A stretch of 64,000 nt of DNA, taken from NCBI GenBank assembly GCA_947304585.1, contig CAMZBI010000001.1, positions 25,501-89,500 of the forward strand. Reading direction: 5' to 3'. The stretch comes from an uncultured Clostridia bacterium. Lineage in GTDB: Bacteria; Bacillota; Clostridia; UBA1212. Of the stretch, positions 32,416-62,477 are shown piece after piece (positions within the stretch are counted from its first letter, which is position 1; each line of letters starts with the position of its first letter). The position numbers were made by a program, and so were the translations under genes. A model generated the notes under the pieces. It was not told the origin of the DNA. It searched no databases and saw only the letters and a program-made list of their open reading frames with translations.

Positions 32416-32516
32416 CAAAAGCAAACTTTTTGTGGCAAGACAAGACGAAATGAGTTTGGTACAATTTGCAATGTAAAAAATAGCCGGCATTTTTAAGACG
32501 GGAGGTGATTCCGCAA

Positions 32517-33005
32517 ATGAACACAGCTGAAAAAATCATAGCGCTCAGAGCTGAGAGAGGCATTTCGCAGCAGGAACTTGCTGACGCAGTTTTTGTTTCA
32601 CGATCTCTCGTGTCAATGTGGGAGGCGGGAACACGCATTCCGGACAGTTTGAGCGTTGAGAAAATGGCTGCGTTGTTCAATGTAAGTGAGGAGGAGATTT
32701 TGAGCGATAGGAAATACGCTTTTGCGTCGTCGCTTGAGAGGAAACTCATTGGCGATGAGATTGCGGAGTTTACCGATGTTGACAGTTCACCGGGTGACAA
32801 GGAACAGGTAAAAAAGATAATGAACGGGTTCCTTCAAAGCATTGGTGGCGTTGACCGCGAGTTGTTTATGAGTCGATACTTCGAAATGAAAACATGCAAA
32901 GCTATCTCAGAGGAAACGCATATGAACGTTTCTACAGTCAGGTGGAGATTGTCCAAACTGAGAAAGAAGCTTGTGCTTTACGCGAAAAAAGGAGGTAAAA
33001 AATGA
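32517..33005 (+). CDS. XRE-HTH + sigma-70 region 4 fusion regulator (ECF-like)
   Basis: N-terminal Cro/C1 HTH (…RGISQQELADAVFVSRSLVSMWEAG…); C-terminal sigma region 4.2-like (…RELFMSRYFEMKTCKAISEETHMNVSTVRWRLSKLRKKL). GGAGGTG RBS. Confidence 0.65.
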   Translation: MNTAEKIIALRAERGISQQELADAVFVSRSLVSMWEAGTRIPDSLSVEKMAALFNVSEEEILSDRKYAFASSLERKLIGDEIAEFTDVDSSPGDKEQVKKIMNGFLQSIGGVDRELFMSRYFEMKTCKAISEETHMNVSTVRWRLSKLRKKLVLYAKKGGKK

Positions 33006-35233
33006 ACGAAAAAGACTTTAGGGAGGCTTTGTCTGAGATTGGAAATGACGTCGATGCGCCAATTTCGGGCGACGCAGTGATAAAAAATAAAAGTAAATTC
33101 AGAAACATTGTGATCATATCTGCCGCGGCGGCAATCGTGCTGACTTTTGCGGTCATTGCCGCTGTTATTATCGGTACGATCGGATCGAATAATCAAAACA
33201 TAAGCGGGGGAGGGCCTTCTGACAAGGTCCTTTTGGTGAATACTCCTTCGCCTGGAGGTATTGACAAGACCGAAGAACCCGGCAATAAAGCAAACCACGG
33301 GGCAACGTCCTCGCCGACCGCAGACCCGACTTCAGCTCCCACAAATCCGCCAATTTCTCAGCCCACTGAGACTCCTGATGGACCTCAAGGGACTCGGGAG
33401 CCTTATTACGTTGAGCCTTTCTGGCTTAAGGGGGAGTATTTGACGGTCAAAAAGCTTGGCTACGGCGGCTCCTCAAACATCGTTTCCTTTGGCGAGGGGA
33501 GTGTCAGCGCAAAGATTATCCCCACAACGGTATTCGGCGAGCATGAGAACTGCGGGAAGGTCTACTATAACACGGAGACCAATGAGATATATTGCGTTTA
33601 CCACGAGTTTCTGGAGGCCTCGGGCGTGACCGTGCCGGAGGGTTATTACATCTATTATGAGCAGGACACGGTGCGGGACGATCTGATGTGCATAAAGATT
33701 GTTGATCCGGGTGACCTTGGCACCACGGACCTGTGGCTTTTTGACATGGACGACCGCCTGGCAAAGAGAGTGGGGCTTCCGGAGGGATGCGGCAGCTACG
33801 AGGATATAAAGATCTATACGCCGGGCCTCTGCAACGGGAAGCTTGCCCTTTGCGTCAGCGATGACATTGGCGATTGCTACATAAGTATTTTTAACAGCGG
33901 AACAGGTGAATATCAGGACTTCGGCAAGGACGCAGGCCTTAAGTCTCTGACCTGCACCTTCCTGACGGAGACTGTGCTTGAGGTGTCGACTCCCGACGGG
34001 TATTACGCCTGGAACACCGCCAATTCTAGAATGTTCAAGCTTATCGGTGAGCACAATATCGTGTTTGACGGGCTCCTTTATTCCGTGAAGAACTGGTGGG
34101 GAGGCTACCATAAGGACGTGGAAGTGGCGGTATATAACGTCGAGACCGGGCTCCTGAGGAAGGGAAGCGGCGGCGTGTTGGCATTGGCGGTGATGGACGA
34201 CGGATCCTACGGCGTGCTTTCTATTGACGACGAGACCGGAAATGAGACGGTCATCATGGATCATTATACGGAGGGCGCTACTGCCTGGAGCAAAGATCAT
34301 GCCTACTTTTACGCATATTCCGCCAAGGACAACAGAGTCCTCTGCTATTCGGTCTCCGCTTGCCAATGGACTTTTGCAGACGTTGCTCCGATAACAAAAG
34401 ATCCGGTACTCGTCGAAGGGACTCTTTATGCGGTGTTCAACAGCTGCAGGCTTGCCGTCGACGACAACTGCAGGGAGGTTACGCTTTACCACACAAGAAA
34501 ACTGGAAGAAATACCTGACCTTCCGGATTTTGAGGAGCAGAGGGTTGACTCCCCTTACTGGGACGACTATCGCGACATTGCCGCAAATAACCGTTTCTCG
34601 GAAACTGACCGCTGGTATGTCACCTACAAAGAGGACAGGGTCAGCACGGGATGGATCGGACATGACGTCGCCAACATGGATGCCCTGCGGGATATCATAC
34701 TGCTTTGCCTGGAGACCCGGGGCGAAAGACTAAAATACGATTTGACTGAAAGCGATTACGACTTCTTTAAAATGAGTTTCAGCTACAGTACATTCAGCAT
34801 GGAGTTTTTTGAAAAAGACGGCAGATACTACTTGAATCTCAATGCCAACAGACAGCCTCCAATGGGTTTCGTGAGTGAATTCAGCGAGATACCGGAAGAG
34901 ACTTTCCTAAGGGTCATGGATATGCACAGCCCTTACGTTCAGTTCACATGGATATCGGTATCAGCCCGAATCGACGATGTTTCAGATCCAAATTGCAAGG
35001 TGGTACTTGATGAGAGCGAGAAGAGTTATTTGAAGGAGTTAATATCTTCCGGCAATTGGAGGCAAAACGATTTTCAGGGCGTTACGTATTTCAGGTACGC
35101 ATGCTTTTTCATTGACGGTGATGTGTGGTTCTGTTATGAGCCCAACATGAAAATCTTGCAGGATATCATGCACTCAACACATATAGAGCTAACAGACGAG
35201 GAGTGCGCCGCCATCGACATAATGCTGAATTGA
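33002..35233 (+). CDS. single-pass membrane anti-sigma-like protein with large extracytoplasmic domain
   Basis: 4-nt overlap with the regulator gene; short cytoplasmic N-terminus, one TM helix (IVIISAAAAIVLTFAVIAAVIIG), about 680-aa exterior domain. Confidence 0.5.
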   Translation: MNEKDFREALSEIGNDVDAPISGDAVIKNKSKFRNIVIISAAAAIVLTFAVIAAVIIGTIGSNNQNISGGGPSDKVLLVNTPSPGGIDKTEEPGNKANHGATSSPTADPTSAPTNPPISQPTETPDGPQGTREPYYVEPFWLKGEYLTVKKLGYGGSSNIVSFGEGSVSAKIIPTTVFGEHENCGKVYYNTETNEIYCVYHEFLEASGVTVPEGYYIYYEQDTVRDDLMCIKIVDPGDLGTTDLWLFDMDDRLAKRVGLPEGCGSYEDIKIYTPGLCNGKLALCVSDDIGDCYISIFNSGTGEYQDFGKDAGLKSLTCTFLTETVLEVSTPDGYYAWNTANSRMFKLIGEHNIVFDGLLYSVKNWWGGYHKDVEVAVYNVETGLLRKGSGGVLALAVMDDGSYGVLSIDDETGNETVIMDHYTEGATAWSKDHAYFYAYSAKDNRVLCYSVSACQWTFADVAPITKDPVLVEGTLYAVFNSCRLAVDDNCREVTLYHTRKLEEIPDLPDFEEQRVDSPYWDDYRDIAANNRFSETDRWYVTYKEDRVSTGWIGHDVANMDALRDIILLCLETRGERLKYDLTESDYDFFKMSFSYSTFSMEFFEKDGRYYLNLNANRQPPMGFVSEFSEIPEETFLRVMDMHSPYVQFTWISVSARIDDVSDPNCKVVLDESEKSYLKELISSGNWRQNDFQGVTYFRYACFFIDGDVWFCYEPNMKILQDIMHSTHIELTDEECAAIDIMLN

Positions 35234-35282
35234 CGTGCAGGGTTCAAAAGGACAGGTCGGCGGATGTGACGGATTGAACAGC

Positions 35283-35752
35283 GCATCTATTAAGGATGCA
35301 CTGTAGGGTAAAAACGGCCCACTGCATCTAAACCGACCACACACCACACAGACGCAGGGAGTAGCCTCCACGGCTACTCCCTGTGTCTGTAATAGAAACT
35401 ACCTGGTGGGATTCGAACCGGGGCCCCCGCAAAGATTTGGCGAAAAGGCTTTAATAACGCCAATTCTTTGTGGGGAAAAGGAGGCGCAGAGATGCAAACA
35501 AAGTGATTCAAGCGAATTTGTTCTTAAAATGCTTAGATCACGCAGTCGGCGTCTCTTGCGGCGACGCATTCGTACGCTATTGAGGCTTTTCAAACACGGG
35601 TTTCAAAACTGAAAAACAGTCTTTTTTACAGGTTTTTCTAAAGATTTTTTTGCCGAAATCAATGACCGGTTTCCGGGAAATCCGAGAACAGGATCAAGAA
35701 TAACAACGATATGTTCCCGACTGATTGATGAATATTCAGCCGGCTTTTTTTT
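35283..35752 (+). repeat. structured modular repeat, copy B
   Basis: TGCACTGTAGGG…CTGCATCTAAACCGACCACACACCACA; hairpin CAGACGCAGGGAGTAGCC/GGCTACTCCCTGTGTCTG; 18-bp helix CCCCGCAAAGATTTGGCG…CGCCAATTCTTTGTGGGG; AAAGGAGGCGCAGAGATGCAAAC; micro-ORF; terminator. Confidence 0.75.
35529..35612 (+). other. Arg-rich micro-ORF inside repeat copy B (MLRSRSRRLLRRRIRTLLRLFKHGFQN)
   Basis: ATG conserved in copies B, C and D2; coding status uncertain. Confidence 0.25.
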
Positions 35753-35821
35753 ATGCAAAAAAATGAATTGAAGGATTTCACATCGAAGGAACAATTGAAA
35801 ACAATTTCACACTTTGTACAT

Positions 35822-38230
35822 TCACTCAACCGCTTTCTGTTTACCGAAAAGGATAGAGCCAAGAGAAATATAGTCTCCGCGCACATGATCGATCCTGAAC
35901 CTCGCCGAGCGGTCATACTCATATACCATGTATGCGCCGCCGCAATAATCCTTTAAAATTTTCACAGGAGCAATCAGGTTTAAGCTTTTTGCGTCAAACA
36001 TCTCTACCGCGAGGCAGCAGTCCGGAGCATTGGCAGTAAAACGGAGAGCCACAGTATATTTCTGCTTCCGTTTCATCTTAATATCGGCGGTGAAAGACTG
36101 GGCGCAAACGTTATCATAATTTGTGCCGTAGGTTTCAGAGCCGCCGTTTTTGATGTAAATCCCGCGTGACAGGACGATATCTTCAACATATTCCGGAAGC
36201 TTTGATTTAACCATGGAAGAGCAGTCAAAGAAGCCGTCACTGCCGTATTTCTCATTGGCGTCGCGGTCGATGCCTTTGAAGGACGCAGGGTAGCAAAACA
36301 TAGGTGCTCTGTACGTTTTAACCCTTCCGGTATAAGCGGCGCTGAAAGTGTATTCCCCGGCGGAAATGTTTTCATAATAACAAAAATCATCGTCTTCCTT
36401 GTCAAAGGTTGCAGGGGAACCATTCAATTCTATATTTGAAATACGCATTCCTGCCTTGGGGATGGCGACGAGAGCTTCCGTACCTTCGGGTACCGAAACA
36501 TGATGAATTCCTTTTTTTATGTCAAACGAGGCTCTTATTGTGCCGTGAGGCGTAGGCATATCGCCAATGACATTTTTTAACTGAGTGCCCAAATGGGGGA
36601 TAACCGAAAACTTCTCGAAACCCGGTTTGACAGGTTTTATACCCAGTACTTCTGTGCTTAGAAAAGCAAGGACGCCTGCGCTCCAGGGATGAGCAAGACT
36701 TGTATATCCCGCCTGACTGTTCGGCAAGGGACCGTTCTTGTCGATTTCGTCTTTCCAGCCCGGACGAAAAACTTCAAAGAAGCAGGTCCCGCCGTATTCT
36801 ATCTGAGACCCCCAAAGATCAAGGATCGATGATAAAGCATCATCGTATTTACCTGTTTTGGCGAGAGCCTTAAGGATAAAGAACTCGTTGAAGGGAGAAT
36901 AGGATATGCGGTTGGTGCGGTCGTTAAAAAACTTTTTGAACAATTCTTCTCGGACCTTTCCGTCTGCGACACCGGCATTCACCGAGTCCGCAAAAGCATG
37001 GATGCCGCAGGACTTGTGCCATAAAGGATCGCTGCTTAAAAGAATACCCTTTTCCTCAGCATATCTCGTGCAACGCCGGGCGTAGTCCTGCCGCCCGAGC
37101 AAATTGAATATATCGGCATATTTTTTGAAACATTCAATGGAAAGAAACTTATATGAAAGACGGTTCTCGGGTATGTCCGGGTTTTCAAAACCCGCGCCAA
37201 GGCGTTCATCCCAGCCGAAAAATGAGAGCGGATAGTTTTTGTCAAAGATTTCATTGGCGTGTTCCAGTCTTTTAACAGCCTCGTCGATCAAACTCAATAC
37301 GCCTACATTATCTCCGGAAAAATCATAGTAGTCGGCAAGTGAAAGAAGCCAGTACAGTTCAAAGCTTTCTATACCGTTCGGGTGTGCGGAAGTATGTTTC
37401 AGGTTTTCAAGCACAAAGTCATAGTTGGCAAATGCTGCAAGAGAAGCTGCCTGAGCGGTGTAAGCGTCTCCTGTCCACGAATGGCGATCACCGCGGTCAA
37501 TAAGTATTGCCGACATGTAGTCTTTTTTCAAATTGACTCTAACGTCATAGGCAGCCGTGTACCAGATCCGGTTCAGCATCCGATTGTCGCACTCAAATGA
37601 GCCGTAATAGTTGACCGGTTTTACCTGGCAGACAAGTCTTACGCCGGTGATATGAAATTCCTTTTTAAGTCCTTGTATATGAATGAAACCGAAGCGCACG
37701 CCCTCATAAAGTTCCGGGTTAAGAACAAGCCTGTAAACGGTATCTGACACTTTTACGGGGTGCCTTGTCTTTTTTGATGACTGAACTCCCCGGTTAACGA
37801 TCTCGGGACTTGTGTACTCACTGACGCTTAACACAATGTTTTCCGGATCGCCAAGGTCAGGACTCATTATCTCAAGCCACGCCGCAAATTCCGAACCGAA
37901 GTCGATCATTACGGTACCATCGCCTTTTACGGTTAAATCTGTATCACCGGAAAGCAACGATTCAAGGTTCAGGAAACTGTTATTGTCCTCCGTTTCATAC
38001 TTTACCGGATAGGCGAAGAAAACCCGCAGCTCGTTTCCTGCGCTCACGTCGTCAAAGCGATAAGACAGAAGAGGATCAGGGGAAAAAGCAGCACCGGCGT
38101 TTTTTACCAATGTCCCGCCCGATATGTGTTTATAAGGTTCTTCGATATCAATATTGGCGATATTGATTCTGAATCTGTCGGAATGATCGTTGCACATGAA
38201 ACTCTGATTATCAATTTCCCGCAAAAGCAT
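35822..38230 (-). CDS. six-hairpin glycoside hydrolase, alpha-L-rhamnosidase-like (GH78-like)
   Basis: 802-aa ORF; central (alpha/alpha)6-type segment (…RHSWTGDAYTAQAASLAAFANYDF…). Exact start uncertain; family assignment by resemblance only. Confidence 0.5.
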   Translation of the reverse strand: MLLREIDNQSFMCNDHSDRFRINIANIDIEEPYKHISGGTLVKNAGAAFSPDPLLSYRFDDVSAGNELRVFFAYPVKYETEDNNSFLNLESLLSGDTDLTVKGDGTVMIDFGSEFAAWLEIMSPDLGDPENIVLSVSEYTSPEIVNRGVQSSKKTRHPVKVSDTVYRLVLNPELYEGVRFGFIHIQGLKKEFHITGVRLVCQVKPVNYYGSFECDNRMLNRIWYTAAYDVRVNLKKDYMSAILIDRGDRHSWTGDAYTAQAASLAAFANYDFVLENLKHTSAHPNGIESFELYWLLSLADYYDFSGDNVGVLSLIDEAVKRLEHANEIFDKNYPLSFFGWDERLGAGFENPDIPENRLSYKFLSIECFKKYADIFNLLGRQDYARRCTRYAEEKGILLSSDPLWHKSCGIHAFADSVNAGVADGKVREELFKKFFNDRTNRISYSPFNEFFILKALAKTGKYDDALSSILDLWGSQIEYGGTCFFEVFRPGWKDEIDKNGPLPNSQAGYTSLAHPWSAGVLAFLSTEVLGIKPVKPGFEKFSVIPHLGTQLKNVIGDMPTPHGTIRASFDIKKGIHHVSVPEGTEALVAIPKAGMRISNIELNGSPATFDKEDDDFCYYENISAGEYTFSAAYTGRVKTYRAPMFCYPASFKGIDRDANEKYGSDGFFDCSSMVKSKLPEYVEDIVLSRGIYIKNGGSETYGTNYDNVCAQSFTADIKMKRKQKYTVALRFTANAPDCCLAVEMFDAKSLNLIAPVKILKDYCGGAYMVYEYDRSARFRIDHVRGDYISLGSILFGKQKAVE

Positions 38231-38233
38231 TTC

Positions 38234-39307
38234 TCATCGGTCTATAACAGCTTTAATAACTCCGCCGCCGATAACCAAACCTCTTTCATCATAAAAAACG
38301 GCGGACTGCCCCTGTGCGGCAGCCCTCACGGGCTCGTCAAATTCAACTCTTACAGTGTCGTTTCTCGCTTTTTCGATAAATGCGGGCTGACCTTTGTGCC
38401 CGTATCTGATCTTGACAATGCATCTTACTTTTTTACTGTCCTCAAGGCTCTCAATACTCATAAAGTTCAGATTATTGCAAAGTATTTCCCGATTGTAGAG
38501 AGAGTCACTCTTTCCGATAACGACTTCGTTTTTTTCCGGGAGTATTTCCTTCACATAGCCCGGATATCCCAGGGAAATACCGAGCCCTTTTCTTTGGCCC
38601 ACAGTGTAATATATGATTCCCTTATGCCTTCCCAGCACATTTCCGTCAGGATCGACAAAATTGCCTTCTTTTGCACAGCCTGTTTTGGCTGCAATAAAGT
38701 CCCCGTAGCTCCCGCCGGTCACAAAGCAAATCTCCTGAGAATCCGGCTTTGAAGCAACGGCAATTTCCGCCTCCTTTGCGATACTTCTGACTTCGTCTTT
38801 ACTTAAACCGCCAAGAGGCATCAGCGTCGCTGCAAGCTGTTCCTGGGTCAGCCTGTAAAGCATGTAAGTCTGGTCCTTTTCGGTATGGCAGGCTGTCTTC
38901 ACCGTATACCTTCCGTTCTCAAGCTTTTCAACAGAAGCGTAGTGCCCGGTGGCAATATGATCTGCCCCGAAAACCTTGGCGTAAAACAGAAGCTTCTCCC
39001 ATTTAACATACCTATTGCAAAAAACACAGGGGTTGGGTGTACGGCCGGAAAGGTATTCGCCGACAAAAGGCTCTACTATATGTCTCCTAAAATCCGACGT
39101 ACAGTTTATGGGATAATAAGGTATGCCGATGCTTCTTGCGGCGTCTCTTGCATCGTCGATGTCGCAACAACGTCCTTCGTCACCGTCTTCAGTCTGCCAG
39201 ACCCTCAGGGTCACGCCAATGACATCATATCCCTCTTTTTTTAGGAGATATGCCGCTACGGCGCTGTCGACTCCTCCCGACATTCCCACAACAACCTTAT
39301 TACCCAT
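38234..39307 (-). CDS. mnmA: tRNA 2-thiouridine(34) synthase
   Basis: PP-loop VVVGMSGGVDSAVAA and conserved cysteines. Confidence 0.9.
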   Translation of the reverse strand: MGNKVVVGMSGGVDSAVAAYLLKKEGYDVIGVTLRVWQTEDGDEGRCCDIDDARDAARSIGIPYYPINCTSDFRRHIVEPFVGEYLSGRTPNPCVFCNRYVKWEKLLFYAKVFGADHIATGHYASVEKLENGRYTVKTACHTEKDQTYMLYRLTQEQLAATLMPLGGLSKDEVRSIAKEAEIAVASKPDSQEICFVTGGSYGDFIAAKTGCAKEGNFVDPDGNVLGRHKGIIYYTVGQRKGLGISLGYPGYVKEILPEKNEVVIGKSDSLYNREILCNNLNFMSIESLEDSKKVRCIVKIRYGHKGQPAFIEKARNDTVRVEFDEPVRAAAQGQSAVFYDERGLVIGGGVIKAVIDR

Positions 39308-39572
39308 AATAATTTACTGCCCGGAACACATTGCTATAAAAGAAATGCGATCATTCAACTTTTTTGAGTGGTTTAAAGTTTTTGTCACCATCCCTGAAAA
39401 AAGATTACGGTAGATTATAAACCTTTCTGCCTACTATGTCAATGGGTATATTCTGCTGTGCCGGGATCAATGTATCAACACGGATTGGTATGGAAAAGCA
39501 TTGGCGGCTTTGATATCTTCCTGTGACGCATATTTCACCAAGGTAACGCTGCAGTTAGGTCCGTAGGAGAGC

Positions 39573-40266
39573 GACTCTATTTAGTTTTCAAGTCATGTTA
39601 TCTTGTACACTGTATCTATTTAGTCTGTACAGTGCATCTTTTAGGGATGTACAGTAGGCCAAAAACGGCCCTCTGCATCTAAATCGACCACACACCACAA
39701 GGTGAACCCGGGTCCCCGAAAGTGCTCGCGCTTTTGGGGAGAGGAGCCGGGGCGGCGGGAATGGAGTCTTTCAAGTGAGGATCTATAAACTTCTTGAAAG
39801 ACGGAATCGTCGGCGTTCGCGGCGACGAAAATAGATGCACACGCAAAAATCGGCTATTTTTAGCCGATTGGAGCGGCTCGAAAGGCCAAAAATTTTAGTG
39901 CGAAATAAAAAGATGCAAAAGCCTATTCCCGAGGGGAATCCATAGGGGCCCCCGAAACTCGCTTTCACACATTGGCCCGTCACTAGTCCGCTTTCGCGGA
40001 AATCGTTCCGGCTCCAATGTGTGGCGCGAGATGGGCCTATTTATGCGCTTTTGGGGAGAAGGAGCCGCAGAGACGCAAACGAAGTGGTCCAAGCGAATAC
40101 AATCTTATAATGCTTGAAACACGCAGTCGGCGTCTCTTGCGGCGACGCATTCGTACGCTATTAAAGCCTTACAACAAGAGTCTTTAAGGGAAAAAGAGAG
40201 CTATATTAAAACAAGAAATAACGGTTTGTTGACGACTGAGTGATGAAACTTCAGCCGGCTTTTTAG
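39573..40266 (+). repeat. structured modular repeat, copy D (composite, two tandem module sets)
   Basis: ACTGTATCTATTTAG and TGTACAGT(×2) block; CCCCGAAAGTGC…GCGCTTTTGGGG; GTCTTTCAAG…CTTGAAAGAC; AATCGGCTA-TTTTT-TAGCCGATT; second helix CCCCCGAAA…CTTTTGGGG enclosing CACACATTGG…CCAATGTGTG; micro-ORF; terminator. Confidence 0.75.
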
Positions 40267-40409
40267 ATCCGACAAACATCCAATCAATGTTTCTTTGTTT
40301 TGTAACGGTTGACTTTCTGCCATTTAAAAATCACGCAATCTATGCTATACTGTCATTACTAAATTTGAAATGCCAAACTGGCAGAGCAAGTTAAGATTGG
40401 AGCCTTGCT

Positions 40410-41357: not shown

Positions 41358-41379
41358 CTGCACGAAAGGCTGAAATCTC

Positions 41380-42726: not shown

Positions 42727-42755
42727 ACCTGGACTGAGCTTTTATAATCCAATCT

Positions 42756-43254
42756 CATATGCATCTATTTGGTCTGAACACTGTATCTATTTAGGATGTA
42801 CAGTAGGGTAAAAACGGGCCTCTGCATCTAAATCGACCACACACCACACACAGAATCAAGGGGTAGCCTTCGCGGTTACCCCTTGATTCTGTGTTGAAAC
42901 AATAGCGTGGGATTCGAACCCGGGGCCCCCGAAAGATTTGGCGAAAAGGCTTTAATAACGCCAATTCTTTGTGGGGATAAGGAGCCGCAGAGACGCAAAC
43001 GAAGTGATTCAAGCGAATTTATTCATAAAATGCTTGGATCACGAAGTCGGCGGCTCTTGCGGCGACGCATTCGTACGCTATTGAGGCTTTTCAAACACGG
43101 GTTTTAAGACTGAAAAACAGTCTTTTTTACAGGTTTTTCAAAAGATTTTTTACCGAAATCAACGACCGGTTTCCGGGAAATCCGAGACCGGGATCAAGAC
43201 AAATAACAACGATCTGTTGCCGACTGAGTGATGAAAATTCAGCCGGCTTTTTGG
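42756..43254 (+). repeat. structured modular repeat, copy C
   Basis: Near-identical architecture to copy B, but the 5' hairpin is ACAGAATCAAGGGGTAGCC-TTCGC-GGTTACCCCTTGATTCTGT. Confidence 0.75.
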
Positions 43255-43344
43255 TTTGTTCGAAATGTTTGATTTTTGGCGTTGTTTAGAGTAAGATAGT
43301 TTTGAAATCTAACAGTTCGATAAACAGGGATTTGTGAGGATGTT

Positions 43345-43812: not shown

Positions 43813-44034
43813 AGACATATTCCGGTTTGTCAAAATAAAACCATCCCGCAAAAAAGCATAGGGCCTGTGGAAAGTGATAACATTATTGATTATTGATTCC
43901 GCAGTTTCCTTTTTGCACACTGTTTGCCTTCTTTTGCAATTGCAAATACACCCATTATTTCTTAGAATATGAACACTGCATGATGCTGTTCACTTTTGAG
44001 AGAGGTTTCCGAAAAACGGAAAGATGGCGCTTTT

Positions 44035-45576
44035 ATGAAGAAATTGATCGCATTTTTGATTTGCTTGCTGGTCCTGATGTCTGCTGCTGAGATCTGTTCC
44101 TTCGGGATGAGCGACGAAAAGCTTGACGGCGAGATCTCCCGCACCACGGAAATTATTCGCAAAGGAGTTGTCTGCACCCATATATCCCTTGGCGACAGTT
44201 CCAAGTATAAGAGGCAGGAGATATGGGTCGTCGAGTTCGATCCGCAAGATCCCGTCTTCGACTTGCAGGTTACCTGCGGCGGGAAGTACACGACGAAGCT
44301 TGTGACCGTGGAGGAAACAGTCAAAAGGTTCAAAGACGCCAACGTTGACAAAGGACTGGTCCCCGTTGTTGCGATCAACGGCGATATATGGACAACGTCT
44401 TACGCCCATGCGAGGATACTGGGCAGCGGAACGGAATACGGAGGTTTCAGCGACCCCGTGGTTACCCACGCAATGACACTTCCGAGGGGCCTTGATATCT
44501 ATGACGGAGAGATCGTTTCCAGCCCTCACACCGCCAAGGAGACCCCCTACGAGAGGCAGCTGCACGCCTTTGGCATTACGCCGGACGGCAGGACCGTTCT
44601 GGGCACGCCAAGCCTCAAAATACGCCTTAACGACCTCTCGCTTAATGGCTTTGAGGAGGTCGACATCTCGGGGCTCAACAGGCTTCCCGCTAAGAATACG
44701 ATCATGATCTACTCCGACAAAGTTGGGGAAGACACGGCTGCGCTTGACGACGCCTATGAGATAGTGATCGACTGTGACTACGATTACGTGATAAAACACG
44801 GCGCCGCGATAAAGGGCAGGGTCACCGCCATCTGCAAAGAAGGCGACGAAGATCCTAAAATGCAGGAAAACCGCCTGATCGTGACTGCAAGGGGGACAAG
44901 ATACGTCCAAAAAGTCAAAAACATCAGGGTCGGAGACGACGTGGAAGTGTCCTTCGAGATCTCAGACGCCAAGAACGACGGCGATATATGGTCACAGGTG
45001 ACCAACTGCGTCGGCGGCCATACGATATTGGTGAAAAAAGGCAAAGCGGTGGCAAACACCGATTCGGACGTGATCCCCGCAACAGCCATCGGGAACACCG
45101 CTGACGGGCACGTTATGTTCCTGGTGTGCGACGGGCGGCGGAAAGATTATTCGGTCGGCCTCAAGATCAGCGATATGCCCGGACTGTGCAAAGCTCTCGG
45201 TTATGAAAACTGCTTTCTCGTTGACGGGGGCGGCAGTTCGACTCTTTTGAAGGAAAGCGGGGATGGAAACTATGAAGTCGTCAACGTGCCCTGCGACAAA
45301 TATGAAGACGGCACGTACGGAAAACCCCGGACCGTCGTTAATTCAATCATTTTGTCGTTTATAGACGAGAGCCTTATCCCGACTCCGGAACCCGTTCAGA
45401 CTCCAACCGCAGAAGAACCGACCGATCCTGCGGCGGAAACTCCGACGACCGGCGGGGACTCCGAAAAAACCGGATGCGGCTCCTCCGTCACAGCTCTTGC
45501 AGTACTTCTGACCGCAACTGCCGCAATGTTTGCTTTGATAAAAAAACCGGAGGTTCACAAGTCAAAAGGCCGTTGA
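44035..45576 (+). CDS. secreted phosphodiester glycosidase-like (DUF2233/NAGPA-like) protein with C-terminal membrane anchor
   Basis: Signal peptide MKKLIAFLICLLVLMSAA; …GGHTILVKKG…FLVCDGRR…FLVDGGGSSTL… core; C-terminal TPTTGGDS + TM + KKPEVHKSKGR. Confidence 0.55.
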   Translation: MKKLIAFLICLLVLMSAAEICSFGMSDEKLDGEISRTTEIIRKGVVCTHISLGDSSKYKRQEIWVVEFDPQDPVFDLQVTCGGKYTTKLVTVEETVKRFKDANVDKGLVPVVAINGDIWTTSYAHARILGSGTEYGGFSDPVVTHAMTLPRGLDIYDGEIVSSPHTAKETPYERQLHAFGITPDGRTVLGTPSLKIRLNDLSLNGFEEVDISGLNRLPAKNTIMIYSDKVGEDTAALDDAYEIVIDCDYDYVIKHGAAIKGRVTAICKEGDEDPKMQENRLIVTARGTRYVQKVKNIRVGDDVEVSFEISDAKNDGDIWSQVTNCVGGHTILVKKGKAVANTDSDVIPATAIGNTADGHVMFLVCDGRRKDYSVGLKISDMPGLCKALGYENCFLVDGGGSSTLLKESGDGNYEVVNVPCDKYEDGTYGKPRTVVNSIILSFIDESLIPTPEPVQTPTAEEPTDPAAETPTTGGDSEKTGCGSSVTALAVLLTATAAMFALIKKPEVHKSKGR

Positions 45577-46443
45577 TGACTGCTCTCCGGCATCTGTTGG
45601 GGAAACGGGACCCGACCGGATCTTGACGGAGGAGGGGGAGATTCCGAAATGTTTGACAAAGGATTTGTAGAACACCGAGTAATCCCCGAAACCGCACCTT
45701 GATGCCGCAGTCTTAATGCTGCAGCCTTCCGATATGAGATTGTAGGCCAGATCAAGCTTTTTTACGGTGATATATTGCCAAACGGATATGCCCAGGGCAT
45801 CGCGGAAAAGCCGGTTCACGTGGGAGTTGCTGTAATGGAACACTGATTCGATAAACGACAGATCGGATATCATGTTGAGATTGTCGCCAATGTAGTCGAT
45901 CACCGCGTTCAGAAGCTCTGTGCCCCCGTTCTTTTTGCCCTTATATTCAAACGCAATACCGTTTTTCCGGACCGCATTGTGACAAAGTTCATAAAGTACA
46001 GCCTTAATATACGTGAAGTACATTTCCGGGTTCGTATCCGAACGCTCGTCGCAGATACGGCTCATACATGAAACGACTGTCGGGTAGATCGCGCTGTCTA
46101 CCGTAAGAACAGCTCCGCTTTTGCTCTTGCACAGATCTGCAAGGCCGGCAAGCACATTGTCGAGTTCCGCATTTTTGCAGGCTTTGGGAATAAACTGCAC
46201 AGCGAAAAATTCAAACGGCGCTTCATTTATCAAAAGGCCGTGGGATTCATTTTCAATCATGAATGCGACGTCATTGGCGCCAAGTTCATACTCCGTGCCG
46301 CCGATAACGATCCCGCATTTTCCCTTTGTAACGACAAGTATTTCATGCGAGGTGTGGCTGTGAACGGGATATGAAAAGCCGTCAGCGCTTTTTTCGACTT
46401 TATGAACAGTGTATAATCCGTACATCTCCATATTGTGCATCAC
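45562..46443 (-). CDS. AraC family transcriptional regulator (cupin + HTH)
   Basis: C-terminal AraC HTH (…IKTAASRCGFGDYSVFYKSFVKHFGISP…). Confidence 0.85.
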   Translation of the reverse strand: MMHNMEMYGLYTVHKVEKSADGFSYPVHSHTSHEILVVTKGKCGIVIGGTEYELGANDVAFMIENESHGLLINEAPFEFFAVQFIPKACKNAELDNVLAGLADLCKSKSGAVLTVDSAIYPTVVSCMSRICDERSDTNPEMYFTYIKAVLYELCHNAVRKNGIAFEYKGKKNGGTELLNAVIDYIGDNLNMISDLSFIESVFHYSNSHVNRLFRDALGISVWQYITVKKLDLAYNLISEGCSIKTAASRCGFGDYSVFYKSFVKHFGISPSSVKIRSGPVSPTDAGEQSSTAF

Positions 46444-46561
46444 CCGCTTCGATTATATTAAAACAGTATCGTTATTGCAATATCGCTTCACGGTTTTGCA
46501 ATTGTAATTGCAATCATTATGAAGTAATCTTATTTCATACTTTTGTTTGGAGGACGCAGCA

Positions 46562-49500
46562 ATGAAAAAACGGATTCGAGGGTTTCTCTGTATTCTGTTG
46601 GGCATAGTGATGATATTGCTCTACGGCTGTGACGGGACAGGCAACGGCCCCGGAAGAGTATACGTTTTTGACGACGGCATAACAGAAGACAGAGGTCAGG
46701 CGGGCACGGAAACGAAGGAGCCGCAGATCTATTCGTACACTCAGAATTTTGACCAAAGGATAAAGGCAAACGATCCCGACTGGTACGTAAATTCCGAGGG
46801 GACCTTCGAGGACGGAGTGTTCAAGAGCAAAACGAATCACGCCTATTTTGCCTCAAAACACAAGATAAAAACTGATGTATTTGTCGCCGAATGGGACGTC
46901 AATACGGACAGAAAAGGCAATACCGATAACGTTTCCGAATACATAGGACTGAGGCTTCCGGGATACGATGATCAGTTCGCCGCCGTCGGGTCCAACGGCA
47001 TCTGGTTCCTGTTTCACAATAACAAAGTCGGAATAATAGACACCTGGCCGACAGTTAAATCGTTTAAGGTTGACGTCGATTTCTCAAAAACGCAGCGCGT
47101 CAGAGTTACCGACAATACCGTTGACAACATCATTACTTTTGAAGTGCAGCAGGAGGGTGAATTCCGGCCTCTCTTTTCTGCGGTGATCGAAGACGGGAAA
47201 AACGTTTTTGTGAAGGACGTGAACGGTAAAGACAGGATCAAAGCCAAATTCACTTATGATATTGACACAAAGGGCTATTTTTCTCTCTGGTCAAGCGGGG
47301 GCAATTCGGGAAGCGCATACATTGACAATGTTGAGATCAATTGGAAAGAAGCTTTGCCGGAGCAATACCATCCTGCGGATATTACTCTTTTGCGCGACCT
47401 GTACTCCGACACCTGGGTAGCGACTGACGACCTTGACAGAACGGTTTCTGACGGCGCCGCTGCACCCCGCGACAAGCTTGTGGGAATGTTTTACCAGATC
47501 TGGTTTACGCCAACGAGCGTGACCTATTCCGATCAAAAAATATACGATCACAACAAGATCTATCATGAGGGCGGTTTTGAAGCCCTCAAAAAGGCCTACG
47601 ATAAAGGTCCGCAGGGCTGGGGCCACTACTGGGGAGAGCCCTATTTCGGCTATTATCTCACCAATGACAAATGGATAATCCGGAAGCACGCGTCAATGCT
47701 TTCGGACATTGGCGTGGATTTCATATTTCTTGACGTTACAAACGGCAACTCCCAGACCACGAGCTACCGCGCAATATTCAAGGAGTACGAGCAGATGCGC
47801 AAAGAGGGCCTTGATACGCCTGACATTTGTTTCTTCATTGCCGACAACACAAGTCTTGTGGAGAACGTTTTTCTTGACATTTGGGACGACGTTTATTCCA
47901 CCGGCCGGTACAGTGATCTTTACGTCATGTACGACGGAAAGCCCCTTATCCTTGGCAATTTGTCGGAACTGTCTGAAGAGGCAAGTGCGATCGCCAATGA
48001 GAATTTCACCTGGCGCCGCTGCTGGGCGCTCCGGGAAAACGTAAAAGACGGAAAGGATTTCTGGACCTGGATGCACGAGACGCCTCAGGTCGCGTCCTAT
48101 AACTCGAAAAAAGGCAATGCGGTGGAGGAGATCTCTATATCCGCAGGAATACTTGCCAATACGAGCACGGGCAGAAGTTTCTCAAACGGCAAACAGCCCG
48201 GAGTCGGCACGCTCCCTGACGGTACGAAGGATTATTTCCAGTTCAACCTCGAAACGACGGGACAGGGTCTGCTGTTTAAAGAGCAAATGCAACGGGCTCA
48301 AGAGGTAGATCCATATGTTGTTCTTATCAACGAGTGGAACGAGTGGATCGCGGGGCGCTGGGAGGGAACGGGGCATCCCACGATTGCCAACACATACGTA
48401 TCATGGTCCGACAGCTTTTACGTTGACTGCTTCGATCCGGAATTCAGCCGCGACATCGAGCCGATGAAGGGCGGATTTGGCGATAATTATTATTATCAGC
48501 TGGCTGCATTCCTGCGTACCTTTAAGGGCGGACGTACCGCTCCTGCAGCCTCCGGCCAGCACGAAATATCGCTTAACGGGGGGCTTGACCAGTGGTCAGA
48601 CGTATGGCCCGAATACCGCGATACGACGGGCGATACGCTCCACAGGGATTCGCTTGGCTACGGCGGACTGGTATCTTATAAGAACGACAGCGGCAGGAAC
48701 GATATCGTCAGCGCGAAAGTTTCAAGAGCCAACGGAAAAACGTACTTCCTGGCGGTATGCGCGGATTCGCTGACTCCCCGGGAAGGCGAAAACTGGATGA
48801 ACCTTTTCATTGATACCGACGGCAATTCCGCCAACGGCTGGCACGGATACGATCTGATCATAAACCGCGACAACGGCTCTATCGAAAAGTTCACGGACGG
48901 ATGGAATATGCAGAAGACCGGTCAGTGCGAACTGTTTGCAGGCGAGAACTATCTGGTGCTCGCAGTCGACGACGCTTCCTGCGGCCTTGGCGCTGATTTT
49001 AACTTCAAATGGTCCGACAACTCCACCACCACAGGCGAGATAATGCAGTTCCTTGACCTTGGGGACGCCGCTCCGAATGCCCGGTTCAACTATGCGTACA
49101 GAACAAAAGCAAAAGAAACAAAGCTTACCGCCAATGTCAAGACCGTTGTCGGCGCAGGCGCTTCGTTTACAGCGAACAGACCTTACGCTTTGTCTGACGG
49201 GAAAATCGCGGCTGTCTACGGTGCGGATACGGCGGTCCTGCCGGAGATGCATAAAAACAGGCTGTTTGTACCCGCCTCTTCCCTAGACATCATCAAAGAT
49301 ATGACGGTCACGGTATCGGGCGGTACCGCAACCGTAAAGTATAAAAACAAGACTTTTGTTTTCGAGGACGGCAACAAAGAAGTGAAACGCGGCAATGATA
49401 CCTATCAGATACCTGTGGCGCCTTACGTAAAAGGCAACGTCCTGTACGTTCCGCTCAATGCCGCCGCATTTATTGCCGGATTGAATTACGTGCAAAATGA

Positions 49501-49588
49501 TCTTGGCGTTGCGATCGTTACTCCCGCCAAACTGCCAAATGAAGATAAAGTCAATGGGGCGTTAAACGAACTGTATATTTCGTATTGA
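46562..49588 (+). CDS. large secreted lipoprotein, glycoside-hydrolase-like core plus C-terminal copper-amine-oxidase-N-like domain
   Basis: Signal/lipobox …LLYGCDG; GGAGG RBS. C-terminal …YQIPVAPYVKGNVLYVPLNAAA… resembles the Cu-amine-oxidase N-domain of clostridial surface proteins. Catalytic family unresolved. Confidence 0.45.
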   Translation: MKKRIRGFLCILLGIVMILLYGCDGTGNGPGRVYVFDDGITEDRGQAGTETKEPQIYSYTQNFDQRIKANDPDWYVNSEGTFEDGVFKSKTNHAYFASKHKIKTDVFVAEWDVNTDRKGNTDNVSEYIGLRLPGYDDQFAAVGSNGIWFLFHNNKVGIIDTWPTVKSFKVDVDFSKTQRVRVTDNTVDNIITFEVQQEGEFRPLFSAVIEDGKNVFVKDVNGKDRIKAKFTYDIDTKGYFSLWSSGGNSGSAYIDNVEINWKEALPEQYHPADITLLRDLYSDTWVATDDLDRTVSDGAAAPRDKLVGMFYQIWFTPTSVTYSDQKIYDHNKIYHEGGFEALKKAYDKGPQGWGHYWGEPYFGYYLTNDKWIIRKHASMLSDIGVDFIFLDVTNGNSQTTSYRAIFKEYEQMRKEGLDTPDICFFIADNTSLVENVFLDIWDDVYSTGRYSDLYVMYDGKPLILGNLSELSEEASAIANENFTWRRCWALRENVKDGKDFWTWMHETPQVASYNSKKGNAVEEISISAGILANTSTGRSFSNGKQPGVGTLPDGTKDYFQFNLETTGQGLLFKEQMQRAQEVDPYVVLINEWNEWIAGRWEGTGHPTIANTYVSWSDSFYVDCFDPEFSRDIEPMKGGFGDNYYYQLAAFLRTFKGGRTAPAASGQHEISLNGGLDQWSDVWPEYRDTTGDTLHRDSLGYGGLVSYKNDSGRNDIVSAKVSRANGKTYFLAVCADSLTPREGENWMNLFIDTDGNSANGWHGYDLIINRDNGSIEKFTDGWNMQKTGQCELFAGENYLVLAVDDASCGLGADFNFKWSDNSTTTGEIMQFLDLGDAAPNARFNYAYRTKAKETKLTANVKTVVGAGASFTANRPYALSDGKIAAVYGADTAVLPEMHKNRLFVPASSLDIIKDMTVTVSGGTATVKYKNKTFVFEDGNKEVKRGNDTYQIPVAPYVKGNVLYVPLNAAAFIAGLNYVQNDLGVAIVTPAKLPNEDKVNGALNELYISY

Positions 49589-49629
49589 CCGTACTCGTTT
49601 GAATACGGGAAGAGTCTTCCTTCAGCGCC

Positions 49630-49740
49630 GCACCTGTTTGGTCTGCATACAGTATCTTTTTATATGCACACGCAGAAATCGGCTATTTTTAGCCGATTGG
49701 AGCGGCTTGGAAAGCGATTTTTTGAGCAATGAAATAAAAA
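49630..49740 (+). repeat. partial copy (E) of the structured repeat
   Basis: TTTGGTCTGCATACAGTATC…GCACACGCAGAAATCGGCTATTTTTAGCCGATTGGAGCGGCTTGGAAAG matches the internal segment of copy D. Confidence 0.55.
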
Positions 49741-49819
49741 GAGACAAATGCCAATTATGGCGTTTTTGTGCTGTCGATTGCGGATCGGTAGGCATTGGCG
49801 CCAATGCTGCCGGATCGCA

Positions 49820-51238
49820 TCACCTTTTTCCCGCATCCTTGCCGATCCTGAAGATAAGATTGCCGTTTTCGTCATAGCCGGAATAAACGGTCTCCACGTT
49901 GAGTCCGATCGAATTAACAAGCGGGCCCTTATCATATACACTTTTCACGTATTCCGAAACTATGAGACAGTACTCACCGTAATCAATAACTGCAGTCGGC
50001 GTTCCTGCGTCAAAGTCCTGAAAACGACTGTCATTTGAGAAAATGAATGAACCGTTTATAATTCCCACTAACGATTCGTTGCGAAACATATTATCTGACA
50101 CTGTCGATCCGAGAACGTTAAGGTCGTAATCGATCTCCACGTTCATGTCGACAGCGAGAACGGTTTTACCGGAATCAACAAAATCACCGTCGGTCGACTG
50201 CGTTCTGACGAAAAGCATAAACCCGCCCTCAGAGGGTTTTGCATAGTTTAAATGATCAAAATCACTGCCTTTGAGGAAACCTCTTTTGATCTCTTGTCCG
50301 TCATCGGCGAGAATGATCATTATAACGTCGGTCTCTCCGTAGTCACGCCACTTCTGCTGATCACGATGCGTTCCGAAAAAGAAATATCTGCCTTCCCTTT
50401 CGATGCAGTTGTAAAACGAACTGCCCTCAAGGCCGTCAAATGCTTTATCAAACTGGAGATTTCCGAATCTGTCGCATTTTATGACTCTCGAGGCGTAACC
50501 TTCATCGCTCGCCCGTTTTTGATCCAAATAGTCATAAGTATAATCTTGAAAGCCGAGGACGAAAAGAAAGCCTCCGTCGGAAGTTGCGGTCAGTGTCGTG
50601 ACGATGTATGCGTCATCGCATTTCACGGTATACTCGGCAAGAACGTCGCCAAAGATATCGAGCATCGTTACCTTTTGAACGACCGTTCTCGTTTCCGGAT
50701 CTTTTTCAACGGTCTCACTTTTCAGCAGTCTGTCGGAAAAAGCTTTGGCGTCTTTAAAGGCGTTCTCATCGATGAGGCTCGTAAGCTCCGGCGGTATCGC
50801 GCCGCTGTCTGTCTCTCGAGGCGGGAAAACGTACCTGTTCCAGATTTCCTCAAGCATCTCGGGTGTCATTTCGGCGTTCCCGATCTCCTCGCAGGGAACA
50901 CTGTTTTTGATTACTTCCGCTGTTTTCTCATCCGTGAACCTTTTTTCTATGATATCGAAGAATACGTTTTTCATTTCTGTACGGCTGAGACCTTCCGAAT
51001 TCAGTCCGTTGTTTTCAAAGAAGGCTGAAGCAGCGTCAAAGGCCTTGGCTTCCGAATAGGCAAATACGCCTGCCACGGCAGCAAGTGCCGCGATTAGAAG
51101 AACGCATACGGACACGGGTATCCATCGTAAATGGTTCCGGCTGTTTTTTTTACTCGATCCTGAGTACGATCTCAAAGCACGGTCAGCCATTTCTTCGTCT
51201 ATACCGGCGAACGCGTCGAAAAGCTGGTTATCTTTCAT
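49820..51238 (-). CDS. single-pass membrane anti-sigma-like protein (paralog of 33002..35233)
   Basis: N-terminus MKDNQLFDAFAGIDEEM resembles MNEKDFREALSEIGNDV of the first partner; one TM helix; 4-nt overlap with the upstream regulator gene. Confidence 0.5.
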   Translation of the reverse strand: MKDNQLFDAFAGIDEEMADRALRSYSGSSKKNSRNHLRWIPVSVCVLLIAALAAVAGVFAYSEAKAFDAASAFFENNGLNSEGLSRTEMKNVFFDIIEKRFTDEKTAEVIKNSVPCEEIGNAEMTPEMLEEIWNRYVFPPRETDSGAIPPELTSLIDENAFKDAKAFSDRLLKSETVEKDPETRTVVQKVTMLDIFGDVLAEYTVKCDDAYIVTTLTATSDGGFLFVLGFQDYTYDYLDQKRASDEGYASRVIKCDRFGNLQFDKAFDGLEGSSFYNCIEREGRYFFFGTHRDQQKWRDYGETDVIMIILADDGQEIKRGFLKGSDFDHLNYAKPSEGGFMLFVRTQSTDGDFVDSGKTVLAVDMNVEIDYDLNVLGSTVSDNMFRNESLVGIINGSFIFSNDSRFQDFDAGTPTAVIDYGEYCLIVSEYVKSVYDKGPLVNSIGLNVETVYSGYDENGNLIFRIGKDAGKR

Positions 51239-51717
51239 TTTTTTGACTCCTTTATGTACCTTGCAAGTTTGGCTCTTGTCTTTGAGAGAATGCTCCTGAC
51301 GTGATTCTCGCGAATGCCGTACGCTTCAGCGATCTCGGCAGTGTTCTTCAGGTGATAGTAACGATTAATAAAAATATCAGCGTCCTTTTCCGGGATGCTC
51401 CTTAGAAAACGGTCCAAAACAACTGCCAGATCTGCGTCGCTGATTTCGATTCCGGCAAGGTTGCCGTCAAAGAGTTCTTTGAAAACAAGGTCGGTTGTAT
51501 CAACTATTTCGTCAACTTTGGCGTTAAATACTTCTGCTATTTTTTCGATCATACGATAATTCGGACGCCTCGTTCCGTTTTCCCATTTTGAGACCAGATC
51601 TCTTGAGACAAACAAACTGTCGGCAAGCACCTGCTGAGACATACCGTTTTTATTGCGCAATTCACTTATTTTTTTGCCGATATTCAGCGAAAACACCTCC
51701 TTTGACCATGATCGCAT
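51235..51717 (-). CDS. XRE-HTH + sigma-70 region 4 fusion regulator (paralog of 32517..33005)
   Basis: Same two-domain architecture (…GMSQQVLADSLFVSRDLVSKWENG… and …DIFINRYYHLKNTAEIAEAYGIRENHVRSILSKTRAKL). Confidence 0.65.
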   Translation of the reverse strand: MRSWSKEVFSLNIGKKISELRNKNGMSQQVLADSLFVSRDLVSKWENGTRRPNYRMIEKIAEVFNAKVDEIVDTTDLVFKELFDGNLAGIEISDADLAVVLDRFLRSIPEKDADIFINRYYHLKNTAEIAEAYGIRENHVRSILSKTRAKLARYIKESKK

Positions 51718-51900
51718 GTAAATTATACCTCATTGACGGTAACATAATAAGGGACAAAACGCACCCGGACCGGAAAGATTGTTTTCGTAAGCTTATTCCC
51801 CGAATTTTTTATGATTTTGGGAAATAATCCCGGTACTCTGATGATCCGAAGGTGCTCTCTTGCCAATGGGACAGGGAAGAAGTAAGCGGGACTCTTTACG

Positions 51901-62352: not shown

Positions 62353-62477
62353 AAAGAGTCTGAAAATAGAGTATCGTTGTTGTTAAAAATTATTAATAAT
62401 TATAAATCGACGAGCACCAGGCAAACCGTCGAAAAAATAGCTTTGAAATAATTTAAAAATACAGTTTATAATTTTCA

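Follow-up and report, generated by a model that had tools for sequence, protein, structure and literature searches.

What is a protein that joins an XRE-type helix-turn-helix (HTH) to region 4 of a sigma factor, and what is the membrane protein whose gene is coupled to its own? This question is raised by a stretch of 64,000 nucleotides (nt) from an uncultured Clostridia bacterium (contig CAMZBI010000001.1, positions 25,501 to 89,500; hereafter the window), in which two such gene pairs lie in opposite orientation. We refer to them as regulator 1 with partner 1 and regulator 2 with partner 2 (Table 1). Judging from the pairs, their relatives in other genomes and their promoters, the regulator is probably not a sigma factor but a transcription factor with two DNA-reading heads and with its own promoter as a target, and its partner is, by inference, anti-sigma-like.

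An open reading frame (ORF) check of the window recovered all four ORFs (Table 1), those of the regulators at the coordinates that an earlier note, made from the DNA letters, had given. The same note had described the regulators as an XRE HTH combined with sigma region 4 and lacking region 2, and this is borne out by Pfam and NCBIfam scores. Both proteins exceed the Pfam gathering threshold for HTH_3 (E = 1.5e-13 for regulator 1 and 1.3e-14 for regulator 2), and the C-terminal halves of both are sigma-region-4-like, scoring past the threshold for Sigma70_r4 (E = 1.3e-7 and 2.8e-9, respectively), with Sigma70_r4_2 passing as well. Sigma70_r2 was absent from both (no Pfam match at E ≤ 1). Consistently, TIGR02937, the NCBIfam model of the sigma-70/extracytoplasmic function (ECF) superfamily, aligns only via the C-terminal third (model positions 91–165), and the sigma matches in the PDB cover region 4 only. 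The two regulators, which are the only copies in the window, share 38% identity over their full length (E = 9e-32). Coupling to a protein with a single transmembrane (TM) segment by a 4-nt ATGA overlap, also claimed in the note, can be read directly in the sequence of both pairs: the regulator stop codon TGA shares 4 nt with the partner ATG at 33002–33005 (pair 1) and 51235–51238 (pair 2), and both junctions read AAAAAATGA. The ectodomains are large and unrelated, as had been stated, with about 683 and 412 amino acids (aa) and no similarity between the two partners detectable by BLAST, ectodomains included. Neither partner matches any family in Pfam or NCBIfam, a PDB sequence search with both ectodomains gave no match, and an AlphaFold2 model of partner 2 made without an alignment was unusable (mean predicted local distance difference test score of 33.8).

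The window pairs belong to a sizeable family. Relatives of regulator 2 form at least 150 clusters at E < 1e-34, nearly all of them 150–153 aa long and all with HTH_3 plus Sigma70_r4; the sole name that they bear in databases is "helix-turn-helix transcriptional regulator", from Clostridia metagenome-assembled genomes (MAGs). A profile search of 1.84 billion representatives gave 149 matches at E ≤ 1e-30, of which about half are full-length two-domain proteins of around 150 aa and the remainder unrelated proteins with multiple XRE repeats. The same search also drew proteins of 700–5640 aa with 8–34 tandem XRE-like stretches (P0121, P0123, P0124 and P0151), which have no relation to the module. 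Foldseek found no PDB chain that spans both halves of the regulator, and PADLOC and PHROGs returned only generic XRE and sigma-part matches. No relative was found among 2.9 million viral contigs. A phage origin was rejected, as was a reading as a toxin–antitoxin pair. In most members the linker between the HTHs carries a near-invariant E-L-x-x-C (ELxEC[VIL]P, the cysteine being alignment column C85), and both window copies are without this cysteine.

We surveyed gene order with one genome per species, finding 105 loci and fetching 80 of them. They derive from rumen and gut MAGs labelled Clostridia, Ruminococcus, Oscillospiraceae, Acutalibacteraceae and similar, with three bins labelled otherwise; one (L001) is the same locus in the same species as the window (99% identity). 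Near-identical modules in bins labelled Phascolarctobacterium, Muribaculaceae and Paludibacteraceae (L057, L076 and L080) match a Butyricicoccaceae locus (L059) and probably reflect bin contamination or recent transfer. Several genomes carry two or three copies, in places 8 kb apart, and the family, so far met in uncultured Clostridia only, is common in rumen and gut members of the Oscillospirales type, often in multiple copies per genome. The arrangement of the genes is strict: in all 76 assessable loci a partner ORF on the same strand begins between −34 and +76 nt from the regulator stop, 47 of them having the exact 4-nt overlap. Natural fusions of regulator and partner were not found among these proteins, the longer ones being N-terminal over-extensions. 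Each pair is likely to be a self-contained two-gene module for signalling and expression, and the window contains two paralogues of it.

The upstream regions of 84 regulator genes, aligned on the family start codon, share a 17-bp box with the consensus G-x-T-G-C-G-T-T-T-T-G-T-[C/A]-C-C-T-T (G.TGCGTTTTGTCCCTT) at a fixed distance from TATAAT. On its 3' side come the rest of a −35-like hexamer (TT[T/G]AC.), 16–17 nt and TATAAT, the −10 agreeing with TATAAT at 6/6 positions in 51 of 78 promoters and at 5/6 in a further 25 (76/78 together). With TATAAT numbered −12 to −7, this asymmetric box extends from −51 to −35, and the −35 hexamer begins with the two final T's of the box. The box before regulator 2 is the only strong match to a position weight matrix (PWM) of the box in the window (26.2 bits), and in 508 kb of fetched loci every one of the 79 matches scoring 16 bits or more is followed, on its own strand and in under 200 nt, by a regulator gene; as the PWM was trained on these same upstream regions, only the lack of other matches is informative. 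A generic promoter scan misses the promoter of operon 2, whose −35 matches 3/6 positions. The start of regulator 2 itself is ambiguous. Its homologues are 150 aa long and start where regulator 2 has CTG 51687, the start codon at this place elsewhere in the family being ATG, GTG or TTG, and a strong Shine–Dalgarno (SD) sequence, AAAGGAGGTG at 51694–51703, precedes the CTG. Since the upstream ATG 51717 lies at the predicted transcription start, 4 nt past the −10 hexamer, the mRNA of regulator 2 would be either leaderless or translated from the CTG.

Which part of the regulator meets which part of the box is indicated by covariation. Mutual information (MI) with average product correction was calculated for 150 protein columns against 28 DNA columns (4200 cells) over 81 distinct pairs. 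First of the 4200 cells was that between column P30, the fourth residue of VSR[D/E]LVSKWE (position 2 of XRE helix 3; D40 in regulator 2), and base −38, with a corrected value (MIc) of 0.68. The second joined P136, the K/R of ILS[K/R]TR in the sigma-4 recognition helix (K146), to base −49 (MIc 0.67), and the third joined P40, an R/S/N just past XRE helix 3 (R50), to base −40 (MIc 0.48). The raw counts for P30 and −38 were 48 for D with C, 29 for E with A, 4 for E with C and 0 for D with A. We then placed the changes by Fitch parsimony on a neighbour-joining tree built without the candidate columns. P30 changed 16 times and base −38 15 times, with 12 changes on the same branch (hypergeometric p = 2e-12); P40 co-changed in all three DNA changes at −40 (p = 6e-6), and P136 and −49 showed three co-changes (p = 7e-3). 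Of the cells above 0.2 that involve sigma-4 columns, all 14 belong to the distal half of the box and the proximal half has none; the columns concerned, 129, 132, 135 and 136 (i, i+3, i+6 and i+7), fall on one face of the recognition helix. Pairings of acidic side chains with the amino groups of C or A, and of Arg with G, are chemically ordinary.

The two foci of covariation lie about 11 bp apart, and because of this distance and of established HTH–DNA geometry we infer that the two heads would lie on the same side of the double helix, in neighbouring major grooves. We favour a placement in which the XRE head reads the proximal half, TGT[C/A/G]CC (about −41 to −36). The sigma-4 head would read the distal half (about −51 to −45), displaced by one helical turn along that DNA face. 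The box has partial dyad symmetry, being weakly pseudo-palindromic (GGTRC-N5-GTMCC), and XRE proteins are usually dimeric on DNA. An XRE homodimer might hence occupy both half-sites, with the sigma-4 domain held off the DNA, where it could dimerise, dock the partner helix or contact the beta-flap of RNA polymerase. This arrangement is unlikely: the covariation of P30 with −38 has no counterpart at the distal base related to it by symmetry (MIc −0.05 to −0.09), and the distal half covaries with the sigma-4 helix residues named above.

Regulator 1 offered an independent test of the two-headed reading, as this paralogue has no canonical box and has different recognition helices; its own box was predicted and then looked for. 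The subfamily to which it belongs comprises 16 clusters, and eight contigs were fetched. All eight carry AAC.TTTTGTG[GA]CAA with an unchanged spacing to TATAAT or TACAAT, and the S at the position of D or E pairs with a G at −38. Over the two subfamilies, the code that links residue 2 of XRE helix 3 to base −38 reads D–C, E–A and S–G. A coupled partner, with the N-terminal variant MN.KDFREALSEIGN, is present in seven of the eight contigs, and the other (L087) has no adjacent partner.

These data also bear on whether the pair could be a true sigma/anti-sigma pair of the ECF kind, with the XRE–region 4 protein being a sigma factor that is split or devoid of region 2, perhaps served by an unseen region-2 partner, and region 4 sitting on the −35. 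The regulator does have the fold and sequence of sigma-4, and a co-transcribed membrane partner and a promoter before its own operon are found in ECF operons too; split sigma factors exist, SigO–RsoA being an example and a precedent. Yet region 2 is absent, 76 of 78 promoters have a near-perfect sigmaA TATAAT, sigma-4 covaries with bases at −51 to −45 and not at −35, the XRE helix clearly reads −38 and −40, and a third conserved gene is not present in the operon. We therefore hold this alternative to be highly improbable. It is because region 2 is missing, the −10 is a sigmaA TATAAT and the sigma-4 HTH is placed at about −49, upstream of the −35, that we read the regulator as a transcription factor working beside a sigma factor's promoter elements and not as a sigma factor.

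The box is not confined to the operons of the family. A DNA-first search, in which metagenome contigs were queried with GGTGCGTTTTGTMCCTTTAC, gave 27 matches, 17 of which are followed by a regulator gene. Eight others, with the correct spacing to a TATAAT-like −10, precede different genes, and the proposition that the box is exclusive to regulator promoters was rejected with their retrieval; the remaining two were unassignable, as one contig (L093) has only 60 nt past the match and the other (L103) has no TATAAT. The eight orphan targets are a 596-aa multidomain flavodiiron protein (four cases), lipoproteins (three) and a 956-aa Big_2/CBM96 protein (one), and a regulator gene is absent from all eight contigs (2.4–12.6 kb). 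Because boxes also precede flavodiiron and lipoprotein genes, a small regulon of envelope and oxidative-stress genes, comparable to those of ECF systems, is probably under the control of the family. The cysteine motif of the linker and the orphan boxes before flavodiiron genes together hint at a redox link. The flavodiiron protein (L095, 157–1947; also L096, L102 and L109) is composed of ODP/metallo-beta-lactamase, flavodoxin, flavin reductase and rubredoxin-like domains. In L095 its gene is followed by one for a serpin lipoprotein (1999–3435), and serpin is also the commonest identifiable ectodomain among the partners (6/79).

We next turn to the membrane partner. Its N-terminus has the consensus M-N-G-x-x-[LMI]-[FY]-[ND]-A-[ILM]-[SAT]-x-[IV]-D-[DE]-x-[LF]-[IL]-[DE]-R, after which come a basic stretch and a single TM segment. 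A hidden Markov model (HMM) of 24 residues built from this motif matches only proteins encoded directly 3' of a regulator gene, and it found two extra pairs that the protein search had missed. Each of the 79 partners has a single TM segment, and in 74 the positive-inside charge predicts a cytoplasmic N-terminus: the 15 residues that precede the TM segment carry a net charge of +4.3, compared with +0.7 after it, and the motif itself has −2.6. Ectodomain length varies from 66 to 1022 aa, with essentially no relationship between one ectodomain and another; 13 of 79 match Pfam, as serpin (the six cases mentioned), BspA-type leucine-rich repeat (LRR; three), SBP_bac_5 (two) or others (two). Against a set of 5.8 billion proteins, the N-terminal profile retrieved only four short fragments of the same family. 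A similarity between the N-termini of the two window partners had been proposed from the letters, and it stands at the level of profiles: the N-terminal profiles of the two partner subfamilies align in register only by profile–profile comparison (hhalign probability 86%, P = 4.9e-6), and the link is weak, as the leave-out HMM of the main family detects partner 2 (27.4 bits) and misses partner 1. Given this strict coupling and a motif confined to proteins encoded right behind a regulator, the partner appears to be best understood as one half of a membrane-tethered signalling pair that follows sigma/anti-sigma logic.

A mechanism can be proposed on these features. The regulator would bind a box that abuts, and by two bases overlaps, the −35 of the sigmaA-type promoter of its own bicistronic operon. 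Given that the box is centred at about −43, the position of a class II activator, it would presumably activate together with the sigmaA holoenzyme rather than repress. Translational coupling would see to it that partner and regulator are made at about 1:1. The acidic, amphipathic N-terminal helix of the partner, some 20 aa in length, would dock on the regulator at the membrane and keep it inactive, much as an anti-sigma factor does, and may do so through DNA mimicry, the regulator being a basic DNA-binding protein. The regulator would be set free by an event at the ectodomain, which might be ligand binding, cleavage or loss. Observed in this scheme are the domain architecture, the invariable pairing, the box with its covariation and the orphan boxes; activation, direct binding of the two proteins and the kinds of signal are proposed.

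Several observations weigh against this proposal. On the side of DNA binding, the covariation of sigma-4 with DNA comes from few independent events (three), the rule that pairs K of the sigma-4 helix with G at −49 fails in the regulator 1 subfamily, and there is the weak pseudo-palindrome already described. On the side of the partner, anti-sigma domains (ASD/zf-HC2, RsgI_N, DUF4179 and similar) were found by Pfam and NCBIfam neither in the window partners nor in the 79 partners scanned, and the N-terminal profile compared with PDB sequences gave no anti-sigma chain, only chance TM-like matches. MI between the regulator and the partner N-terminus is weak and diffuse, with the top pairs leaning to the sigma-4 half, and was not used as evidence. 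The boxes of paralogues within one genome are near-identical, which makes a signal-specific output hard to explain. Lastly, XRE proteins are mostly repressors and 58 of 78 promoters have a usable −35 (4–5/6 matches), which together leave room for autorepression. Of the earlier proposal of a pair that is sigma/anti-sigma-like or membrane-tethered, the coupling (76/76) and the motif found only behind regulators hold up, while the sigma factor and a known anti-sigma domain do not; in place of the anti-sigma-like N-domain expected there, we find a short conserved cytoplasmic motif that matches no known anti-sigma domain in Pfam, NCBIfam or the PDB.

Autorepression would turn the module into an ordinary XRE repressor of a surface-protein operon, with the membrane protein as its cargo and the N-terminal motif serving in targeting, insertion or localisation. 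Besides the typical role of XRE proteins and the many reasonable −35 hexamers, this account would fit ectodomains that resemble effectors (serpin, BspA-type LRR, solute-binding protein) more than they do classical sensors, and the lack of a clear regulator–partner interface by MI. It fits less well with a motif that is cytoplasmic, acidic and exclusive to this regulator family. Moreover, lipoproteins behind orphan boxes lack the motif, which is therefore not required for export; a repressor would not usually have its operator at −51 to −35, above the core promoter; and the poor −35 of regulator 2 (3/6) argues the same way. On these grounds we regard this account, with the membrane protein as mere cargo, as unlikely.

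Beyond the two-headed activator with its tethering partner, the module may represent a hitherto undescribed class of extracytoplasmic signalling that runs parallel to ECF/anti-sigma pairs. In such a class, an XRE domain would replace region 2, the resulting chimera would activate promoters that depend on sigmaA, a simple and evolvable D/E/S–C/A/G code would set the promoter, the helix would be a minimal anti-activator and possibly a DNA mimic, and ectodomains, including serpins that are consumed by proteases, would couple surface events to envelope and oxidative-stress genes. We put this forward as a tentative generalisation, which could well be wrong in its full extent.

The position of the two pairs within the window raised a different possibility, namely that a mobile island bounded by repeats carries them as cargo or is regulated by them, a suggestion of the earlier note. 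A tRNA-Ala gene lies directly upstream (31984–32057), a family of intergenic repeats is spread over 32.1–53.8 kb, and a related pair in another genome (L083) adjoins relaxase and MobC genes. Against this, the interval between the pairs has no integrase or transposase and contains the housekeeping gene mnmA, besides genes for a rhamnosidase-like protein, an AraC regulator, GNAT and the like; an orthologue of pair 1 with 75% identity sits between a cation ATPase gene and proS, that is, among other housekeeping neighbours and without repeats; several paralogues per genome are normal for the family; and viral contigs, as reported above, hold no relatives of the regulator. A check for co-occurrence of pairs and repeats found the window repeats in 0/79 loci of other species. 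The claim that the pairs belong to or regulate a mobile unit is thus not upheld, and an island is barely credible here. Nor is the repeat region exactly bounded by the pairs, since repeat copies also lie outside them (53538–53772); with several copies of the module in the genome, coincidence is the best explanation of their opposite orientation and flanking position.

The repeats deserve a short description of their own. They are composite, with several sub-modules at 70–92% identity, and some end in terminator-like hairpins (GCCGGCTTTTT). The family appears species-specific, because it is absent from all loci of other species; candidates for its nature are an element like a miniature inverted-repeat transposable element (MITE), small RNA genes and shared terminators. 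Sub-module D8 (32112–32140 and 42898–42926) contains GGATTCGAACCCGAGGCCCCCGC, which resembles the reverse complement of a tRNA T-arm plus acceptor 3' end, and lies just downstream of the above tRNA-Ala gene (anticodon CGC) and its hairpin (32070–32098). As for L083 (553–1856), whose regulator belongs to the regulator 1 subfamily and whose neighbours are relaxase and MobC/NikA-like genes, it is the sole mobile-element context among about 115 loci. Elsewhere in the window, a purine riboswitch (25146–25273; Rfam RF00167, 39.3 bits) lies upstream of an operon for a Bmp-family binding protein and an ABC transporter (25334–30439). The variable part of the window includes genes for a Tubulin_2-like protein of 714 aa (54423–56567), an AAA_14/DUF4143 ATPase (52202–53530) and a protein with HTH_17, AAA-ATPase_like and PDDEXK_9 domains (17023–18990); the Tubulin_2-like, AAA_14/DUF4143 and PDDEXK_9 genes are typical accessory or conflict-type genes. 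Finally, 62452–63392 holds three direct copies of an 87-nt unit (70–86% identity) around and after an ORF at 62491–63111.

Table 1 Features of the two gene pairs, their promoters and the surrounding repeats, in window positions
Feature	Positions	Strand	Description
Composite intergenic repeat copies	32093–32411, 35260–35749, 39611–40264, 42760–43252, 49661–49756, 51950–52067, 53538–53772		
Subfamily box GCAAACTTTTTGTGGCA	32421–32437	+	−51 to −35 of the regulator 1 promoter; G 32434 = −38
Operon 1 promoter, sigmaA-type	32437–32465	+	AAGACA, 17-nt spacer, TACAAT, TG before −10; independently found by a generic scan
Regulator 1 SD GGGAGGTG	8 nt 5' of ATG	+	
Regulator 1	32517–33005	+	162 aa; XRE HTH, helical linker, sigma region-4 HTH; divergent paralogue
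Regulator 1 recognition helices			VSRSLVSMWE (XRE) and STVRWRLSKLRKKL
Partner 1	33002–35233	+	743 aa; N-terminal motif MNEKDFREALSEIGN, basic stretch, TM, Pro/Thr-rich stalk, ectodomain
Partner 1 TM	33104–33181	+	aa ~35–60; ectodomain ~683 aa, no fold assigned
Partner 2	49820–51238	−	472 aa; canonical N-terminal motif MKDNQLFDAFAGIDEEMADR, basic stretch, TM, ectodomain
Partner 2 TM	51059–51121	−	aa ~40–60; ectodomain ~412 aa, no fold assigned
Regulator 2	51235–51717	−	160 aa from ATG 51717, or 150 aa from CTG 51687; canonical family member
Regulator 2 recognition helices			VSRDLVSKWE (XRE) and ENHVRSILSKTRAKL
Operon 2 promoter, sigmaA-type	51722–51750	−	weak −35 TTATTA (51745–51750), 17-nt spacer, −10 TATAAT (51722–51727)
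Canonical box GGGTGCGTTTTGTCCCT of regulator 2	51750–51766	−	−51 to −35; C 51753 = −38, G 51755 = −40, G 51764 = −49

How does this module relate to systems already described? That a membrane partner controls a small transcription protein is known. The chimeric two-headed regulator, the box with its code and the short N-terminal motif seem not to have been described before; a literature search of incomplete coverage found no description of the architecture or the module, which is absence of evidence only. A recognition rule of one amino acid to one base pair is rare, and with at least 12 independent switches and a defined box it is a potential source of orthogonal regulator and promoter parts. 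The reuse of sigma region 4 as an ordinary DNA-reading head beside an XRE domain bears on how sigma domains evolve into transcription factors. If the partner is anti-sigma-like, the diverse ectodomains would mark what these organisms sense or display at their surface.

The closest likeness in gene organisation is with ECF sigma factors and their TM anti-sigma factors (SigW–RsiW, and SigI–RsgI of Clostridium thermocellum), in which a sigma-4 protein is co-transcribed and coupled with a single-pass partner whose N-terminus is inside, and the promoter stands before the pair's own operon. As with SigI–RsgI, there are many paralogues per genome with very different ectodomains. The differences are that here an XRE HTH takes the place of sigma region 2, that the −10 is of the sigmaA type with a spacer of 16–17 nt instead of an ECF-type −35/−10, that the sigma-4 head appears to read upstream of the −35, and that the partner offers only a helix of about 20 aa in place of a recognisable anti-sigma domain. 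The arrangement on DNA recalls lambda, where an XRE-type HTH at about −42 lies beside a sigma-4 HTH in the class II activator position; there, however, two proteins are involved and the sigma-4 domain of the holoenzyme is at −35, whereas here both heads are on one chain and sigma-4 is distal (about −49). In mechanism, the regulator resembles MarA, SoxS and Rob, single chains with two HTHs in adjacent major grooves on an asymmetric box of about 17–20 bp that can overlap the −35. The fold is unrelated, with no HTH_18 or HTH_AraC match in our regulators, and MarA-type proteins have no membrane partner. CylR1/CylR2 of Enterococcus faecalis likewise combine a small XRE regulator with a membrane protein from the adjacent gene, and CylR2 is among the PDB sequence matches; it is, in contrast, a 66-aa XRE-only dimer without a sigma-4 domain, and CylR1 is a small protein without a large ectodomain. 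With ToxR and CadC, finally, the module shares one-step transmembrane signalling from a variable outer domain to a DNA-binding domain, and what those proteins achieve with DNA-binding domain and TM segment in one chain would here be divided between two coupled proteins.

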